A DNA stretch of 26,690 bases from Candidatus Doudnabacteria bacterium. GTDB taxonomy: Bacteria > Patescibacteriota > Doudnabacteria > UBA920 > 2-01-FULL-50-11. Every line of letters begins with the position of its first letter. Position 1 is the first letter of the stretch. The position numbers and the translations under genes are program-made. Below the pieces are notes generated by a model. It was not told where the DNA came from. It saw only the letters and a program-made list of their open reading frames with translations, and ran no database searches. The stretch is taken from assembly GCA_016205055.1 (NCBI GenBank), contig JACQJK010000008.1, forward strand, positions 1 to 26,690, given 5' to 3'. Below are positions 18,794 through 25,829 of this stretch, one piece after another.

Positions 18794-20089
18794 ATGCGCA
18801 AGAAATATCGCTTCAGCATCCTGGCCGCGATTATCCTGGCTTTTTTGATTATTTCCCCCTGGGCAATATCTTTTGCATTTGGATACATCTTCGAGTTTAA
18901 AAATTTCTCTTTCAAAAAAACCGGCACCTTGATCGTCCGCACCTTGCCCAAAGGGGCTCGAGTAATTATTAACGACCGGCCGACTTCTCACTTCACGCCT
19001 GCCACCGTGCGCCTGCTTTTACCCGGAGCATACCGGATTCGCTTGGAAAAAGACGGTTTTCTGACCTGGCAAAAAAGCGTCAATATTTTGCCGGGACAAG
19101 TCACTTTCCTGCCCGAAGGCGGCTCTGATATTTCTCTGTTTTTATCAGCCGGTTCCGCCGAAATCATCTCCACCGACACTCTAACCTTGATTGGAACCCT
19201 TCAAGATCAATGGGCCATCACCGCTACTTCAACCTTTGCACTTAAAAAGCTGAGCGAACCGCGAAACTTTCAAATTGACTTTCCAGCGCAAAACTTAGCA
19301 AAACCAAGCTTTCAAATTACTCCCGACGGTGAGTGGTTATTTATTTACGACGAAGGCAAGTTCAAAAGAGCCGGAAATATCTCCGCAAAAACCGTCATAG
19401 AAACCCGAGACCTGCCCAAAGGAACCGTAAACGCTTTGCCGTGGAAAAAAAACCAGATGCTGATAGAACTTGCTGACAAAAATCTGTTTTTTTGGTCGCC
19501 CGAGACCTTAAAATTTTTCAGGAAAGCGCCCCAATCCTACGCCGTGTCCGCGGACGAATTTTTGTTCCTGGAAAACGGCAATGTCTATTCACTGGACCGA
19601 GCCAGTTCGACTCTCGAGCTAATTTTCACGGACCTGCACAACTTCCCCGACCCAAAACTCTTTCCGACAAGATCGGCCGGCCTGCTCGGGTTATCCGGCA
19701 AACGGCTTTTCCAACTTACCCCACAGTTACGCCGGTTGCCGGGCGAAAGCATCGAAACCGTGACTTGGCACGAGCAATCAAAAACTCTGCTCTACGCTTC
19801 CCCTAATGAAATCTGGTTTGACAAAGCCAACCTGGGCGGTGGACCCGAGATAATCGTGCGCGCAAGCGACGCCCTGAAAAAACCCGTCTATGCTGACGCT
19901 TTACAGCAGATTGTGTTTTTGCAAGACAGTAAGATCAAAGCCGTAGAACTCTACGGACCTGCTCCCCGCAACATCACCACGCTTGTGGAAAGCGAAACGC
20001 CAATCACCGATTTCCTGCTCGACCCCCAAGCGCGGATTATCTACTTCCTGCAAGCAAACGGGGATCTTTTGTCGAAAAAAATCAGATAG
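18794..20089 (+). CDS. Membrane-anchored PEGA-domain protein with a probable beta-rich/propeller C-terminus
   Basis: N-terminal TM helix, then GTLIVRTLPKGARVIIND...TPATV..LLPGAYRIRLEKDGFLTWQKSVNILPGQVT (PEGA pattern). Only + strand gene; its 3' end overlaps that of rnhA by 8 nt. Confidence 0.8.
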   Translation: MRKKYRFSILAAIILAFLIISPWAISFAFGYIFEFKNFSFKKTGTLIVRTLPKGARVIINDRPTSHFTPATVRLLLPGAYRIRLEKDGFLTWQKSVNILPGQVTFLPEGGSDISLFLSAGSAEIISTDTLTLIGTLQDQWAITATSTFALKKLSEPRNFQIDFPAQNLAKPSFQITPDGEWLFIYDEGKFKRAGNISAKTVIETRDLPKGTVNALPWKKNQMLIELADKNLFFWSPETLKFFRKAPQSYAVSADEFLFLENGNVYSLDRASSTLELIFTDLHNFPDPKLFPTRSAGLLGLSGKRLFQLTPQLRRLPGESIETVTWHEQSKTLLYASPNEIWFDKANLGGGPEIIVRASDALKKPVYADALQQIVFLQDSKIKAVELYGPAPRNITTLVESETPITDFLLDPQARIIYFLQANGDLLSKKIR

Positions 20090-20504
20090 ACGGCTTTTGT
20101 CGTTGCAAACCCTCGTCTATCGCTTGATTGACCAGTTGATCAGCGAGCGCGTTTTGCGAACGCGGAACGTGAACAAAATTTAGTTGCACGAACTGCCGAG
20201 TTAGCGCCAGCGCTTTCGCCGCACGGTCAGCGATACTGCCGCTTTTAATTTTGTAACGGCCGGTCAGCTGTCGGACAATCAGTTCAGAATCAAGTTTGAG
20301 CGTGACCTTATCCGCGCCCAGCTCTTTGGCTTTTTGCAGCGCAACGATTACCGCCTCGTACTCGGCTTGGTTGTTGGTTAAATTCCCCAGGTATCCTTTT
20401 ATCTCGAGTACCAATTTGCCGTTGTGGTCATAAACCGCCGCGCCAAACCCAGCCGGGCCGGGATTACCGCGCGCTCCGCCGTCGGTAAAAATTGTAACTT
20501 TCAT
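20082..20504 (-). CDS. rnhA: Ribonuclease HI (archaeal-like/Bacillus-type RNase HI subfamily)
   Basis: FTDGGARGNPGPAG, TNNQAEYEA, LDSELIVRQLTGRYKIK, HVPRSQNALADQLVN. Confidence 0.93.
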   Translation of the reverse strand: MKVTIFTDGGARGNPGPAGFGAAVYDHNGKLVLEIKGYLGNLTNNQAEYEAVIVALQKAKELGADKVTLKLDSELIVRQLTGRYKIKSGSIADRAAKALALTRQFVQLNFVHVPRSQNALADQLVNQAIDEGLQRQKPSI

Positions 20505-20528: not shown

Positions 20529-22310
20529 TTACGCGGAAGTCTTTCTTAAATCTCTAATTTTCAACTGCACGCGCCTTAGGCCGTTCCAATGGTTATGCGA
20601 GGGCTCGACCACGACTTCCAGATTTTCCCCGGGAGCAAGCCGGAGGCCTTCTTGGGCCTTGCCAAAACCGATAAATTCATAAACCCGGTCGTTTTTTGTG
20701 GCCTGCAGTTTCAAATGTTTTCCGGTTGCGCCCACCAAGCGAGTTTGCTCCAAGGTCAAATCCTGCAGCAAAACCGTAACCGGCGGATTGTCGGGACCGA
20801 ACGGCTCAAAATTTTTCAATTCCTCAAGCAACGCGTCAGTAATCTGCTCCGGCTCTGCTATGAAATCAACAAACTCCTGCCGCGAAAAATCCGACTCGGC
20901 CAGTTCGCGGCCGGCTGTAGCATCAATGTGGTTATGGAAGTCGTCTAAAAACTCGTTTTTCAAAGTTAAACCGGCCGCAGCAGCGTGCCCGCCGAATCGC
21001 TCCAAATACTTTTGGGCGCCGGATAATGCCTTGACAATATTAAAACTTCCCCACGACCGGGCCGAGCCAGTAGCCACCTCCGCTCCTTTTTCCAAAACAA
21101 TCGCCGGCCGCTGATAATTTTCCACCAAGCGGGCCGCGACCAAACCCACTACTCCTCTGGGCCAGCCGACGCCCGCCGCCAAAAGCACCTTTCTGTCTTG
21201 CTGGCCTTCCGCGATTGACTTGGCTTCGGAAAGAATCTGTTCGGTCAAGCGCTGTCGGTGCAAATTTAAACTTTCCACCTGCCCGGCATACATGGCGGCC
21301 TCGGTCGGATTGTCCGTTGCTAACAAGCGGAAAGCGATGTCGGCGTGCTGGATGCGTCCGGCCGCGTTAATACGGGGCGCAATGATAAACCCGACGGAAT
21401 AACTGTCAAAATTTGCATATTCGCTGATTCCGGCGTTTTTGACAATTTCCCATAAACCCGGCCACTTGGTTTTTCCAATGACCGAAAGACCGTATTTTAC
21501 CAAAATGCGATTTTCCCCCATCAAGCTTTGGCAGTCGGCGATCGTGCCGATCGCCACTAAATCCAAAAGCCATTTCTCCCAGCCGGGAACTATGCGCGCC
21601 CGCGCGTGCCCAAGAAAAGCAGAAAGTTTTTTTGATCCGATTTCCGGAATTTTCCAGCCGTACATCCCTTGATACTCGGATGAGTAAATTAAGGCAATAA
21701 GCGCTTGCACTAACTTGAAAGCAACCCCCACCCCGGTCAGTCCTGCAAGCACCGGTAAATCGTCAAGTTTAGGATTAATCACGGACGAGGCAGGCGGTAA
21801 ATTCCCTAAAATGTAGTGGTGGTCGGTGACAATCACGTCAACCCCCAAAGAGTTGGCAAAAATTACTTCGTCAAGCGCGTTAATGCCGCAATCCACCGTC
21901 ACGATCAAGCGCGTTCCGCGGTCAGCTATAGATTTAATCGCCTCCTGGTTCAAACCATAGCCCTCGTCGAACCGATCGGGAATGTACCAGTCGATTCGCG
22001 CGCCGAGTTTTGACAAAAACCGGTATAACACGACGCAAGCGGTGACTGCGTCCGCGTCATAATCGGCATAAATCGTTATCTTTTCCTGGTCGGCGATTGC
22101 ACTAAGTAATCGGGCAGCGGAAATCTGCATTCCGCTCATCGCAAACGGGGAAATTAACCGCTCGTATTGGGGATTGAGAAAATAATCCTGCTCACTCTCG
22201 CTTGTTAAGCCGCGATTGAACAATAGTTGCAAAATAACCCGATCGTGGTCGGGAAATTTTTTGATTAGCTCATCGCTGATTTTTTCTTTAACAATCCATT
22301 TGCGCTTCAT
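20529..22310 (-). CDS. recJ: Single-stranded-DNA-specific exonuclease RecJ
   Basis: YADYDAD, PDRFDEGYG, VTVDCG, VTDHH (DHH), APRINAAGR, GSARS, GGHAAAAG (DHHA1), C-terminal OB region. ATGA overlap with korB. Confidence 0.96.
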   Translation of the reverse strand: MKRKWIVKEKISDELIKKFPDHDRVILQLLFNRGLTSESEQDYFLNPQYERLISPFAMSGMQISAARLLSAIADQEKITIYADYDADAVTACVVLYRFLSKLGARIDWYIPDRFDEGYGLNQEAIKSIADRGTRLIVTVDCGINALDEVIFANSLGVDVIVTDHHYILGNLPPASSVINPKLDDLPVLAGLTGVGVAFKLVQALIALIYSSEYQGMYGWKIPEIGSKKLSAFLGHARARIVPGWEKWLLDLVAIGTIADCQSLMGENRILVKYGLSVIGKTKWPGLWEIVKNAGISEYANFDSYSVGFIIAPRINAAGRIQHADIAFRLLATDNPTEAAMYAGQVESLNLHRQRLTEQILSEAKSIAEGQQDRKVLLAAGVGWPRGVVGLVAARLVENYQRPAIVLEKGAEVATGSARSWGSFNIVKALSGAQKYLERFGGHAAAAGLTLKNEFLDDFHNHIDATAGRELAESDFSRQEFVDFIAEPEQITDALLEELKNFEPFGPDNPPVTVLLQDLTLEQTRLVGATGKHLKLQATKNDRVYEFIGFGKAQEGLRLAPGENLEVVVEPSHNHWNGLRRVQLKIRDLRKTSA

Positions 22311-23194
22311 TGGTACTTTTCGAGCAAGGATGAAATGTCAAGTTTGCTTAAATCATGCTTCACAAGCGGGGTTTTGGAAATTTGCGGATAATTATCCTCC
22401 AAAATCAAACGGTCTTCTTCGTACAATATACCAACGGCAATCTTCTGATCAAGGGGCTCTTGGGTCACCTCCCAGGCCTTGAAGCGATTGTCGGGCGCGT
22501 ATCCTTTATCCTCAAGTTTGTAAACCCGTTTGCGGTACCAATCATAGGACATTTCCGGATTAAAGGTCGGGCACGGCTGCATGACGTCAATAAACGAAAA
22601 CCCCCGATGCCACACGCCTTTGACGATCAAATCAGTCAGGTGCGGAATGTCGCCGGCAAAGCCGCGGGCGACGAACGTTCCGCCGGCTGAAACCGCAAGC
22701 GCCGTAGGGTTTAACTGAAACTCATTATAGCCGTCGGGGTGGGCTTTGCCTTTAAATCCTTTCATGGAAGTCGGGGACGACTGTCCCACGGTCAAGGAAT
22801 AAACGTGGTTGTCGTGCACGATATAGGTAAGGTTAACATTGGACCGAATCGTCTGAATCGTGTGGCTTAAGCCCTCGGCAAACCCGTCGCCGTCGCCGCC
22901 GATAACGATCACGTTCAGCTCGTGATTGGCAAGTTTGGCGCCCACCGCGGCCGGCAAAGCGCGGCCGTGGAGCGAGTGAAAAATGTTGGCCTTAACAAAG
23001 CTGGCAAAATTACCCGAACAGCCGATGCCAAAAACCAAAACTGTCTGGTGCGGCGCCAGGTTCAATTTCACCAGGGCGTTTTTGAGCGCGGCCCAAATGG
23101 CAAAATCGCCGCAGCCCGGGCACCAGGTGGGGAAGACTTCCGAGTTAAAATCGTCAGCGCGCAAAGGGTTAGTAAGGTCGGGATTAGAGAGCAT
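22307..23194 (-). CDS. korB: 2-oxoacid:ferredoxin oxidoreductase beta subunit (TPP-binding)
   Basis: TWCPGCGDF, GIGCSG, HSLHGRALP, GGDGDG...DN TPP motif, QPCPTFN. Start placed at ATG 23194: the ORF-track start at 23254 is a TTG inside repeat copy A. Confidence 0.92.
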   Translation of the reverse strand: MLSNPDLTNPLRADDFNSEVFPTWCPGCGDFAIWAALKNALVKLNLAPHQTVLVFGIGCSGNFASFVKANIFHSLHGRALPAAVGAKLANHELNVIVIGGDGDGFAEGLSHTIQTIRSNVNLTYIVHDNHVYSLTVGQSSPTSMKGFKGKAHPDGYNEFQLNPTALAVSAGGTFVARGFAGDIPHLTDLIVKGVWHRGFSFIDVMQPCPTFNPEMSYDWYRKRVYKLEDKGYAPDNRFKAWEVTQEPLDQKIAVGILYEEDRLILEDNYPQISKTPLVKHDLSKLDISSLLEKYQ

Positions 23195-23221
23195 GATACT
23201 CTTTAATGAAAGAATTCTATA

Positions 23222-23270
23222 CCCTCTCCATATACGGAGAGGGGGTCCGCCCAAGGCGGACAGGTGGGGT
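23222..23270 (-). repeat. Palindromic repeat, copy A
   Basis: Minus strand: ACCCCACCT GTCCGCC-TTG-GGCGGAC C CCCTCTCC-GTATAT-GGAGAGGG. Begins at the stop codon of the small membrane-protein gene. Confidence 0.8.
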
Positions 23271-23605
23271 TAATTTTGACTTTTATCCGCCGCAGCGAAT
23301 GAATTTTGATTTCTGTACTTACCCCACCTCACCAGACTCAAAACTAATAAGACCGTCAAAAAACTTAGTGAAGACCAAAAAAGAAAATTGAGCAAATACG
23401 CTTTCTCATCAAATACCTGGGCGGAAAAAGCAATTTTAAATGGCCAGCCGGTAAATCTGCATATGGCTAATTCGTGTCCCGGGAACGAACAGTAAAAAGC
23501 AGTTTCAAAACCAACATAACGATTAATTGAGAATCCTGTTATCGACCCCATTACCACACTCCACCCCACCACATGCTTTTTTGTTTTGAGACTAAAGATT
23601 TTCAT
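23270..23605 (-). CDS. Hypothetical small membrane protein (two predicted TM segments)
   Basis: 111 aa ORF, ATG 9 nt after the hairpin of repeat B. Hydrophobic segments near both ends, GWPF and LLNFLFW motifs. Fills the gap between repeats B and A exactly. Confidence 0.7.
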   Translation of the reverse strand: MKIFSLKTKKHVVGWSVVMGSITGFSINRYVGFETAFYCSFPGHELAICRFTGWPFKIAFSAQVFDEKAYLLNFLFWSSLSFLTVLLVLSLVRWGKYRNQNSFAAADKSQN

Positions 23606-23613
23606 ACAATTTT

Positions 23614-23650
23614 TCCCTCTCCTGTCGAGGAGAGGGATTAAGGATGAGGT
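23614..23650 (-). repeat. Palindromic repeat, copy B (no small hairpin)
   Basis: Minus strand: ACCTCATCC TTAA TCCCTCTCCT-CGAC-AGGAGAGGGA (10-bp stem). Head starts 1 nt after the DUF559 stop. Confidence 0.85.
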
Positions 23651-23651
23651 T

Positions 23652-24005
23652 TTATGAAACGGCGCCCTCTATCGCCTCCAAAACCCCCTCAAAATTACTA
23701 TCCAGCTCGTTATTCCACACTCTTAGGAGATCACATCCTTCGACATCGCGTAAATAATTTTCCCTGTGTCGATCTCGACTCTTAATTCCCTCTTCGTTGT
23801 GATGACCACCATCAAGCTCGATTATAAGACGCTTTTCCGGGCAATAAAAATCAACGATGTAATTTCCCATTCTGGCTTGCCGCTTGAATCTAAGTCCGAG
23901 AAACCTCCTATCTCTTAAAGCCTGCCACAATTTAATCTCCCAAGGCGTCCCTTTTCTTCTCAATGCTCTTGAAAGCTTAATGAATTGTTGAGGAACTTTT
24001 TTCAT
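23652..24005 (-). CDS. DUF559-family (Vsr-like, PD-(D/E)xK fold) putative endonuclease
   Basis: Matches the family pattern throughout: SRALRRKGTPWEIKLWQALR, GLRFKRQ, GNYIVDFYC, LIIELDGGHH, LLRVWNNE, EGVLEAI. 117 aa. Confidence 0.9.
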   Translation of the reverse strand: MKKVPQQFIKLSRALRRKGTPWEIKLWQALRDRRFLGLRFKRQARMGNYIVDFYCPEKRLIIELDGGHHNEEGIKSRDRHRENYLRDVEGCDLLRVWNNELDSNFEGVLEAIEGAVS

Positions 24006-24048
24006 ACCTCATCCGTCCTTCGGACACCTTCTCCTCGTCAGGAGAAGG
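24006..24048 (+). repeat. Palindromic repeat, copy C
   Basis: Plus strand: ACCTCATCC GTCC-TTC-GGAC A CCTTCTCCT-CGTC-AGGAGAAGG. Abuts the DUF559 ATG and fills 43 of the 48 nt up to the korA stop. Confidence 0.88.
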
Positions 24049-24053
24049 CGGAT

Positions 24054-25829
24054 TTATCCTAAAATATTTTTCACTTTCTCAACTATCTCTTCCGGCCAGA
24101 ACGGTCGGCCGTCGTACTTGCGCAAGTGATGACCTGGAATGATTCCTGTCTGCTGGCGAATTAATCCTTCGAACTGCCCCGAAAAATTATTTTCAACCAC
24201 TAACAACTGCTTGGCTTCCTCCAGTATCATAACCGCTCGGGGCGTGGGAAACGGCCAGACATAATTAAAATGCAGAAAATTGACACTTGAAGTTTCTCCA
24301 CCCTCATCCGGCCTCCGGCCACCTTCTCCCGTCGAGGGAGAAGGAAATAGAGAAAGGTCTGCTAAGGCCTGTAAAATCGGCCCTTTGGTCGAGCCCCAGG
24401 AAACGATCGTTAAGTCAGCTTGATCCGGGCCGTATAACTTAGGATCAGGGATTTGCAACAAAGCATTGTCCAACTTCCGCATGCGCTTTTGCATCTGCGC
24501 GTTGCGATTGGCGACATCCTCGACGTTATAACCGTATTCGTCGTGTTCATCGGAATTGGCCAAGTGTACTCCCCCTTCGGTCCCCGGCAGAGCGCGCGGG
24601 GAAACTCCCGATTCGGTAACTTTGTAGCGTAAATACTTTCCCTGCTTTTTAATGTCCTCTGCCGTCACCCATTCACCTCGATCGATTTGAACTTTTGCTT
24701 GATCGAATACTGGCACGGTTTTTCCGCCTTCGGCCAGGTTTTTATCCGAAAGCAAAAATACCGGCATTTGATATTTTTCCGCCCAATTAAACGCCTCGGC
24801 CGTTAAATAAAAACACTCTTCCTGATCCCCTGGCGCAATGATCATTCTGGGAAACTCATCTTGCGCCGCGTGCATCAAAAACCGCAAATCGGCTTGTCCC
24901 GACCAGGTGGGCAGTCCCGTCGCCGGGCCGGGACGCTGGCCCATAAAAATCACTACCGGCGTTTCGGTAATGCCGGATAACCCTAAGGCCTCCGTCATCA
25001 AAGAAAATCCGCCGCCGCTGGTGCCAACCATGCTCCGCGTGCCCATCCAGCCGGCGCCTATTGCCGAGTTGAGTACCGCAATCTCGTCCTCCGGCTGGCG
25101 CACGATCATGCCGAATTTCGGTCCGTTTTTGGCGACAAACTCTAACAACGACGAGGAAGGCGTCATGGGATAACCGAAATAAGCGCGGCAACCGGCTGCG
25201 ATCGCCCCCATGCCCACGGCTTCGTTGCCGGTGACGTAAATTTGCTCGCGTGGAGGGCGATTTTCGACTTTATATGCAAACGGATTTTTAAAATTCTTCT
25301 TCGCAAAATCATAACCGGCGCTTCCTGCCTTTAAATTCATGTCAATCACCGGCTGCCCTTTGCTGCCGAAAGTTTCCCTAAGCAACGACAACAGGCCTTC
25401 GATATTCGCTCCCAAGACGGCAAGCAGAGCGCCCAAGGCCACGGTATTTTTCATCAATTCCGAGCCGCCAACGTCGCGGGTAATCTGGGAAAACGGCACG
25501 GCGAAAAGCGTAAACTTAGCATTTGCATTTTTAACCTTACCCGGATCGTAAATGATCCCGGCGTCTTTGGACAACTCGGGCTGGTGTTCGTCAAAAGTCT
25601 GCTGGTTTAACGCCACCAGCAAATTCACCGGCCGGATATGATGATGGACTTTTTCGCCAATTGTGATTTCAAAAGTATTGTGCCCGCCGCGGATTAAAGA
25701 AGGATATTCGGTATAATCGAACACCTGGTACCCCATGCGAGAAAAAATTTTTCCCAGCATGGATCCGGCAACTTTGATTCCGAAACCGGCCTCTCCGCCG
25801 ATTTTAATTGTCACCAAGCGCTCCGACAT
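24054..25829 (-). CDS. korA: 2-oxoacid:ferredoxin oxidoreductase alpha subunit (fused gamma-alpha type)
   Basis: GGEAGFGIKVAG, SLIRGGHN, VTGNEA, GYPMTPSS, EDEIA, SGGGFSLMTE, QRPGPATGLPT, VSWGSTKG, VVENNFSGQF. Contains a repeat-derived in-frame insert. Confidence 0.94.
   Translation of the reverse strand: MSERLVTIKIGGEAGFGIKVAGSMLGKIFSRMGYQVFDYTEYPSLIRGGHNTFEITIGEKVHHHIRPVNLLVALNQQTFDEHQPELSKDAGIIYDPGKVKNANAKFTLFAVPFSQITRDVGGSELMKNTVALGALLAVLGANIEGLLSLLRETFGSKGQPVIDMNLKAGSAGYDFAKKNFKNPFAYKVENRPPREQIYVTGNEAVGMGAIAAGCRAYFGYPMTPSSSLLEFVAKNGPKFGMIVRQPEDEIAVLNSAIGAGWMGTRSMVGTSGGGFSLMTEALGLSGITETPVVIFMGQRPGPATGLPTWSGQADLRFLMHAAQDEFPRMIIAPGDQEECFYLTAEAFNWAEKYQMPVFLLSDKNLAEGGKTVPVFDQAKVQIDRGEWVTAEDIKKQGKYLRYKVTESGVSPRALPGTEGGVHLANSDEHDEYGYNVEDVANRNAQMQKRMRKLDNALLQIPDPKLYGPDQADLTIVSWGSTKGPILQALADLSLFPSPSTGEGGRRPDEGGETSSVNFLHFNYVWPFPTPRAVMILEEAKQLLVVENNFSGQFEGLIRQQTGIIPGHHLRKYDGRPFWPEEIVEKVKNILG
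24301..24344 (+). repeat. Palindromic repeat, copy D, in frame inside korA
   Basis: Plus strand: CCCTCATCC GGCC-TCC-GGCC A CCTTCTCCC-GTCGA-GGGAGAAGG. Its complement encodes PSPSTGEGGRRPDEG (korA aa 496-510). Confidence 0.88.

Follow-up and report, generated by a model that had tools for sequence, protein, structure and literature searches.

The window analysed here is a contig of 26,690 nt (C122) from the draft genome of a Candidatus Doudnabacteria bacterium (G000; 0.79 Mb in 127 contigs, about 90% complete; groundwater habitat according to the public runs), and the object of the study is the array of repeats and small genes found at the junction of korA and korB, which encode a 2-oxoacid:ferredoxin oxidoreductase. 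The array probably consists of three parts: a mini-element in which a gene of the DUF559 nuclease family is framed by triplex-motif repeats B and C, a second gene, orf111, accompanied by repeat D, and repeat A, a solo left arm of the same kind of element, which is located inside KorA. On the evidence of the sequence comparisons given below, it is likely that the element is or was mobile DNA, probably of a selfish nature. The korB start at 23194 and the korA stop at 24054 enclose a gap of 859 bp (23195-24053), of which 816 bp (95%) are occupied by B, the DUF559 gene, C, orf111 and D. The initial annotation had assigned the minus strand to A and B and the plus strand to C and D and had described a gap of 859 bp made up almost wholly of alternating repeats and genes, and the orientations, the places and the exact length were all reproduced. 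The inserted genes had also been said to end with TAA followed by a repeat, and this holds for DUF559 and orf111 as well as for korA, with the repeat beginning 0-5 nt after each stop codon.

The DUF559 mini-element and its repeats

The mini-element (left arm B, the open reading frame (ORF) and right arm C) spans 434 bp at 23615..24048 on the minus strand, as delimited by its homology to a copy in genome G026. The G026 copy (C6:49719-50158), which belongs to a different family of the order, was obtained in a DNA search of 120 genomes and is 72% identical overall. The left and right arms were identical at 42/44 and 34/36 positions, respectively (94-95%), whereas the ORF shared 244/354 nt (69%) and 75/117 aa. 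The similarity begins and stops at the outer ends of both hairpins. As judged from this alignment, B-DUF559-C is one discrete and sharply bounded unit, the ends of which are far better conserved than the gene.

The DUF559 gene (23652..24005, minus strand) encodes a putative Vsr-like PD-(D/E)XK nuclease of 117 aa. The match to Pfam PF04480 was obtained with E = 7.8e-33 and 113 bits against a cut-off of 20.6, and DUF559 and the related REase_MTES_1575 were the only Pfam families matched. The YcjD-type model NF007294 was matched over the full length with a score under the model cut-off. The residues that are invariant in 31 relatives are all kept, including E23, D52, E63, D65, H69 and D78. DUF559 is a very large family of "unknown function".

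Repeat B (24006..24048, minus strand), the left arm of the element, is composed of hairpin 1 (24027-24048), hairpin 2 (24015-24025) and a tail (24006-24014) that abuts the DUF559 ATG. The same parts were found in repeat A (24301..24344, minus strand; 24322-24344, 24310-24320 and 24301-24309, respectively), a repeat of solo left-arm type with 81% identity to B over 37 nt. Repeat C (23615..23649, plus strand), the right arm, was detected as a member of an inverted pair (I3) and contains hairpin 1 (23615-23636), a 5-nt spacer and a tail (23642-23649), hairpin 2 being absent. Repeat D (23222..23269, plus strand), of right-arm type, lies at the 3' end of orf111 and has hairpin 1 (23222-23243), hairpin 2 (23245-23261) and a degenerate tail (23263-23269). 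Hairpin 1 of all four repeats is formed by a pyrimidine arm CCYTCTCC, a loop of 5-6 nt and a purine arm GGAGARGG. The second, small GC hairpin is shared by A, B and D, and each repeat is closed by a G-rich tail, GGATGAGG in A, B and C and GGTGGGG in D. The left arm is of the CCTTCTCC type with hairpin 2 and the right arm is a hairpin of the CCCTCTCC type; the one is not an exact inverted copy of the other. On the gene strand, A and B have forward and C and D reverse orientation, and B lies 5' of its gene. The nested inverted pairs C/B and D/A that had been proposed are retained in part. C and B are the two unlike ends of the DUF559 element, whereas D and A do not form a unit, because genuine korA sequence that is conserved in relatives lies between A and B; D and A as ends of a larger element were ruled out on this ground.

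The four repeats belong, with high confidence as judged from their anatomy, to the BoxC/PIT/TM class of intrastrand triplex motifs. A class II motif of this kind (BoxC, PIT, TM/TMECO) comprises a pyrimidine arm, a purine arm and a mirror-image G-rich tail (PMC4666352). All four copies have a pyrimidine-only arm, the short loop and a perfectly complementary purine arm, with stems of 8-9 bp. When the tail was compared with the purine arm in mirror image (G opposite G, A or T opposite A), 9/9 positions agreed in A, 9/9 in B and 9/10 in C, and about 6/8 in the degenerate tail of D. Among the 61 arms that flank 35 DUF559 genes of the order, the tail was the mirror with at most one mismatch in 45. 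A mirror copy of the purine arm fitted the tail of the DUF559-flanking arms better than a direct copy in 32 cases and worse in 8, with 17 ties. The TMECO spacing has a first loop of 3-6 nt and a second loop of 3 nt; here the second loop is 5 nt in C and 13-19 nt in A, B and D, so the four copies are a variant and not TMECO proper.

Folding as single-stranded DNA gave the expected fold for all four repeats, with z-scores of -2.8 to -5.1 relative to shuffles. The hairpin-1 pattern was matched six times in the 0.79-Mb genome, four of these at the korA-korB locus, and not once by the reversed control; a looser hairpin pattern gave 20 matches and again none in the control. With about 76 such hairpins per 790 kb, about 0.1 would be expected per 1.15 kb, while 4 were observed at the locus. 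It is supported that the four repeats are recombination-prone or mobile DNA and not chance palindromes. An Rfam scan of 22800-24800 at E <= 10 returned chance-level matches only. When the locus was compared with its own genome by blastn-short, no other stretch matched at E <= 0.05, and the repeat family is therefore defined in this genome by architecture and not by near-identity. Many contigs of the genome end within 100 nt of a pyrimidine/purine hairpin (C16:2, C39:35, C72:95, C77:21, C90:21, C101:76, C118:52). The assembly is probably interrupted by the repeats, so that their true number is likely underestimated.

Association of the repeats with DUF559 genes

In the genome itself, all five DUF559 genes are accompanied by such hairpins, which occupy 9/10 flanks. 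Across the order (30 loci from 30 genomes), a hairpin was found within 130 nt on 46/59 DUF559 flanks, the expectation per flank window being 0.024 as determined from the rest of the same 30 loci. Hairpin counts and DUF559 copy numbers were correlated in 121 genomes of the order with a Spearman rho of 0.82; the reversed control pattern had a count of about 0. Of 42 genomes without DUF559, 29 had no hairpin, 11 had one, and the remaining two had 3 and 7. The genomes with DUF559 had a median of 7 hairpins and a maximum of 95, far above two per gene.

The association was also followed outside the order. The A/B-type arm, defined by 34 fixed bases, was found in more than 120 stretches across many phyla, where the double-hairpin motif of 41-43 nt is repeated nearly letter for letter. 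The hosts include Pseudomonadota, Planctomycetota, Chloroflexota, Verrucomicrobiota, Elusimicrobiota, Patescibacteria, a metagenome-assembled genome of Heliobacteriaceae and others (L116-L195). The closing pair of hairpin 2, which was left unconstrained, is Watson-Crick in 85/86 A/B-type copies, and compensatory changes were observed at this pair (C-G 53, G-C 30, T-A 2, G-T 1). In 22/86 copies an inverted right arm follows 16-99 nt downstream, forming a short version in which a brief spacer takes the place of the DUF559 ORF. DUF559 genes are present elsewhere in all of five distant genomes in which the arm occurs, and several of these genes are framed by the same arm type. As far as can be read from the genomes compared, the triplex-repeat class is physically and numerically tied to DUF559 genes in this order and in other phyla. 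Full-text searches for DUF559, for the arm sequence and for the arm peptide found no paper describing such an association. As a separate observation, G000:C92:1-148 and G000:C126:1-115 share at their start an unrelated repeat of about 115 nt, which lies upstream of a DUF559 gene lacking the left-arm hairpin in one contig and upstream of a transketolase gene in the other.

Several results weigh against a mobile element driven by its own gene. No target-site duplication was found around repeat A or around the element, the two sides of which read ATCCG and AAAAA. The five DUF559 copies of the genome share 40-46% aa identity and appear old and diverged; because of this identity and of the missing DNA-level match to the locus at E <= 0.05, there is no sign of recent movement of the element in its own genome. 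The correlation coefficient of 0.82 is uncorrected for phylogeny and G+C, and it is partly built in, as each gene brings about two hairpins. No hairpin was detected by the pattern used in 10/79 genomes with a DUF559 match, although the match is weak in 5 of these 10. In other phyla only 1/86 A/B-type arms lies within 200 nt of a DUF559 gene. Most arms thus persist with no DUF559 gene in cis; a passenger role of the nuclease is conceivable.

The missing target-site duplications, the diverged DUF559 copies and the 1/86 figure also speak for an alternative which we regard as rather unlikely, namely that the triplex-motif repeats spread or rearrange alone (by slippage or stalling at non-B DNA, by recombination or by another enzyme) and that DUF559 is a passenger or a host "guardian" nuclease, the gene following the repeats. 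Solo and short forms far outnumber the gene-bearing ones, with about 76 hairpins for 5 genes in this genome, and TM repeats have been linked to local instability with no enzyme named (Holder et al., PMC4666352). However, the gene is found in genome after genome precisely flanked by one left and one right arm, with both its start and its stop codon adjoining the tails. Conservation is far higher in the arms than in the ORF, and the homology stops where the arms end. Such hairpins are almost missing from genomes without DUF559, and a passenger would not be expected to retain every conserved nuclease residue.

Repeat A in KorA, the korA-korB junction and orf111

Repeat A is not intergenic: the korA frame runs unbroken through it. 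In the alignment of KorA from five genera, it is contained in an in-frame insert of 57 nt (19 aa; 24294..24350, minus strand), and the 19 residues are absent from three of the four sister genera (G001, G002, G004). The fourth, G003, has a shorter in-frame insert of pyrimidine/purine hairpin type near residue 495, at the same site and with a different stem sequence, which points either to an independent insertion or to an older insert having been replaced. In the 6n2n structure, the site falls in domain II, at a turn from helix to strand. The best reading of these alignments is that repeat A is a solo left arm that became fixed in frame in a surface turn of KorA. A near-identical repeat-A unit of about 48 nt was found on many unrelated contigs of the same metagenomes, with loose ends at 24298 and 24344-24347. 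In addition, an in-frame pyrimidine/purine hairpin was observed in a transketolase gene (G000:C126:1013-1055), just before the conserved KPxMIIAKTIKGKG. About 23 of the 76 hairpins of the genome are in frames that stay open for at least 60 codons on both sides. Pure pyrimidine or pure purine arms cannot encode stops in any frame, and in-frame copies are therefore tolerated; arm copies with a length that is a multiple of three would survive inside genes. For annotation, this means that "linkers" rich in G/E/R/P/S in proteins of such genomes can be repeat insertions.

The in-frame copies bear on a further explanation, which we judge to be improbable, that the hairpins are RNA cis-elements of the host (stabilisers of mRNA, signals for processing or termination, or devices presenting or hiding a Shine-Dalgarno-like GGAG) that resemble each other through shared function and have no mobility. 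Three of the four repeats directly follow stop codons, the purine arm of C lies on the gene strand 9 nt upstream of the orf111 ATG, which is a good Shine-Dalgarno spacing, and the covariation in hairpin 2 would suit any single-stranded fold, RNA or DNA. On the other hand, A is in frame in korA, where three related genera have nothing at the same site, and roughly 23 of the 76 hairpins are in long open frames. The insert has neither a T-run nor a terminator consensus on the minus strand. For the mirror tail there is no function in an RNA hairpin, and RNA does not form triplexes of the purine motif (PMC4666352). PIT elements are cited in the same paper as having no promoter or terminator activity in E. 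coli. A sequence of 41 nt that is near-identical across phyla would not be expected of a generic regulatory hairpin, and the position of hairpins at many contig ends is typical of dispersed repeats.

The korA-korB junction was compared among five genera of the family, namely the genome studied here and G001-G004 (KorA identity to G001/G002 63-74%). The gap is 25 nt in G001 and 6 nt in G002, with no passenger in either. In G003 it is 511 nt long and holds a NUDIX gene that is preceded by a perfect 13-bp palindrome and has no repeat of this kind. The gap of 1070 nt in G004 (L005 3211-4280) contains several CCCCTC-type hairpins and a frameshifted antisense pentapeptide-repeat gene. The junction is thus variable in gene content among genera of the family, being filled by DUF559 and orf111 in one, empty in others and holding other insertions in G003 and G004. 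In 66 distant korAB loci the gap ranged from -47 to about 350 nt. No strain-level filled or empty site was found; a metagenome scan with KorB gave only relatives of <=54% identity.

Integron cassette arrays (attC/IntI) have a gene-plus-hairpin look, with variable genes at a single locus, and the repeats had been proposed to be capture sites of an integron-like array without IntI or, alternatively, sites of programmed inversion. This explanation is largely refuted and has a very low remaining probability. The junction content does differ among the five genera, every inserted gene of the locus ends at a repeat, and orf111-family genes stand beside DUF559 elements in five genomes and in both orders. 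The expected variation of passengers was therefore found, but no single repeat is shared in one orientation. The repeats do not mark the 3' ends of cassettes in one uniform orientation, B and C being unlike ends of one element, and a repeat of this kind is lacking at the NUDIX passenger of G003. Repeat A lies within korA, and a recombination event involving A and B would remove the conserved domain II. Neither attI nor an attC architecture is present; no integrase was found in the window, and the single tyrosine recombinase of the genome (PF00589) is on contig C50. The inversion of the enclosed segment was examined on Logan contigs, not on raw or long reads. Contigs of four runs contained only the reference arrangement for this organism, which leaves room for rare variants. 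The listed inversion "joints" were rejected, as their sides of 22-45 nt at 90% likeness came from repeats or kor genes of other organisms.

The second inserted gene, orf111 (23270..23605, minus strand), encodes a small predicted membrane protein of 111 aa with two helices, which has no Pfam model and was recognised through its phmmer family. The possibility of a spurious ORF was considered after an empty word-indexed protein search and was dismissed, since a DNA search in relatives and phmmer found a family. At E <= 1e-3, the exhaustive phmmer search gave 38 cluster representatives. The N-terminus MKIFSLETKKHLVGWS and a C-terminal helix with the end ILSLVRHFRKK are common to homologues from at least 7 genomes of the order; two-helix members were located at L237:1126-1449, L241 1501-1863 (reverse strand), L247:1497-1808 and L246:218-481. 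Family members have 85-120 aa, usually with transketolase or pentose-phosphate genes in the neighbourhood, and tandem triplication occurs in some cases (L240). A member directly adjoins a DUF559 element in five genomes, with either gene order, and in G026 the orf111 homologue is followed by the same kind of arm as D. On these comparisons, orf111 is a conserved gene with a right-arm-type repeat, D, at its 3' end. PADLOC, used in view of a possible defence pair of orf111 and DUF559, gave nothing for orf111 and only weak nuclease-domain matches for DUF559.

The genes of the region are all on the minus strand, in the order acetyl-CoA-synthetase-like gene, orf145, korA, DUF559, orf111, korB, recJ and an RNase H-like gene. 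KorA (24054..25829, minus strand; 591 aa) is the fused gamma and alpha subunit, identified by Pfam POR, POR_N and PFOR_II and by NCBIfam TIGR03710 (636 bits, cut-off 483), and it aligns end to end with chain A of PDB 6n2n. KorB (22307..23194, minus strand), the beta subunit, has 295 aa, as in its relatives, and matches Pfam TPP_enzyme_C and PFO_beta_C and NCBIfam TIGR02177 (308 bits, cut-off 262). Since no terminator consensus is present in the insert on the gene strand, korA-DUF559-orf111-korB probably still form one transcript; no promoter consensus was found on that strand either. An operon that is interrupted by 859 bp need not have lost co-transcription. The layout was reproduced piecewise by Logan contigs from three samples of one groundwater study, perhaps including the source sample. 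Downstream of korB, after recJ, the gene of RNase H / RVT_3 type (20082-20504, minus strand; 140 aa) is ordinary-looking.

Proposed mechanism and comparison with known systems

It is conceivable that DUF559 itself is the mobilising enzyme, a proposal that we put forward tentatively. The arms would leave the duplex and fold into hairpins or triplexes, which the nuclease would recognise or nick. Repair of the break or recombination could then copy the element, or short derivatives without the gene, into new sites. With stop-free arms, the element could take up in-frame positions in essential genes with no need of an intron or intein, and in small genomes it might also shuffle neighbouring genes, orf111 for example, into operons. 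Enzymes with a Vsr fold are able to function as homing endonucleases (PMC3239194).

A broader proposal, equally tentative, is that DUF559 is the missing partner enzyme of the BoxC/PIT/triplex-motif repeats and that both belong to a pan-bacterial class of mobile elements which recognises folded ends and not linear sequence. The class would have three forms: gene-bearing units of about 430 bp (e.g. 23615-24048), short gene-less inverted doublets and solo arms. The BoxC/PIT/TM repeats have been known since the 1990s and linked to genome instability, without a known mechanism or partner protein, and TM/BoxC loci in E. coli are rearrangement-prone by an unknown mechanism (PMC4666352). The coupling of DUF559 with the repeats would merge two open questions into one testable hypothesis, namely whether the nuclease acts on the folded repeat. 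The locus displays this coupling clearly, with a complete element, a translated solo copy in KorA and a junction that differs among sister genera.

TMECO resembles the repeats studied here in its class II layout and in being multi-copy, dispersed and tied to locally variable gene content (Holder et al. 2015, PMC4666352, with reference to Bachellier and Hoyne/Maher). Save for the 5-nt second loop, the TMECO consensus is fitted by copy C and by a copy at G000:C82:2048. In contrast to the 3-nt second loop of TMECO, that of A, B and D contains a small covarying GC hairpin. No partner protein is named for TMECO and its published copies are intergenic (PMC4666352), whereas here the repeats frame DUF559 genes and some are in frame inside genes. 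TMECO was reported in Proteobacteria (PMC4666352), while the present genome is a groundwater genome of about 0.8 Mb, a size typical of Patescibacteria.

[quoted passage not shown] Repeat A in KorA and the similar insert in transketolase (C126) behave alike. The Rickettsia elements, about 150 bp long, are of other sequence families, and no nuclease gene is known to be linked to them; the unit found here has about 45-57 nt, is related to the ends of a gene-bearing element and was seen without target-site duplications. Of the features of MITEs, terminal inverted repeats with short gene-less forms were found (22/86 left arms) and the target-site duplication was not.

The EDxHD/Vsr-like homing endonuclease I-Bth0305I is a selfish nuclease of Vsr fold in or beside conserved genes (Taylor et al. 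2011, PMC3239194), as the korA-korB element may be. A presence/absence difference of the kind seen with homing genes may exist at korA-korB, the junction being filled here and empty in G001 and G002, although these are different genera and other insertions occupy it in G003 and G004. I-Bth0305I is, however, a larger multidomain protein inside a group I intron (PMC3239194), whereas the element at korA-korB has no intron or intein and combines a bare nuclease domain of 117 aa with structured inverted-repeat ends.

In the REP/REPIN-RAYT system, a gene is flanked by inverted palindromic repeats which are also dispersed as gene-less singlets and inverted doublets (Bertels & Rainey 2011, PMC3116915), and the same arrangement was observed here. 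The enzyme of that system is an IS200/IS605-type Y1 (HUH) transposase, in contrast to the unrelated Vsr-like PD-(D/E)XK nuclease of the DUF559 element. The DUF559 element further differs in having several diverged gene copies per genome, triplex motifs in place of REP hairpins and some copies located inside genes.

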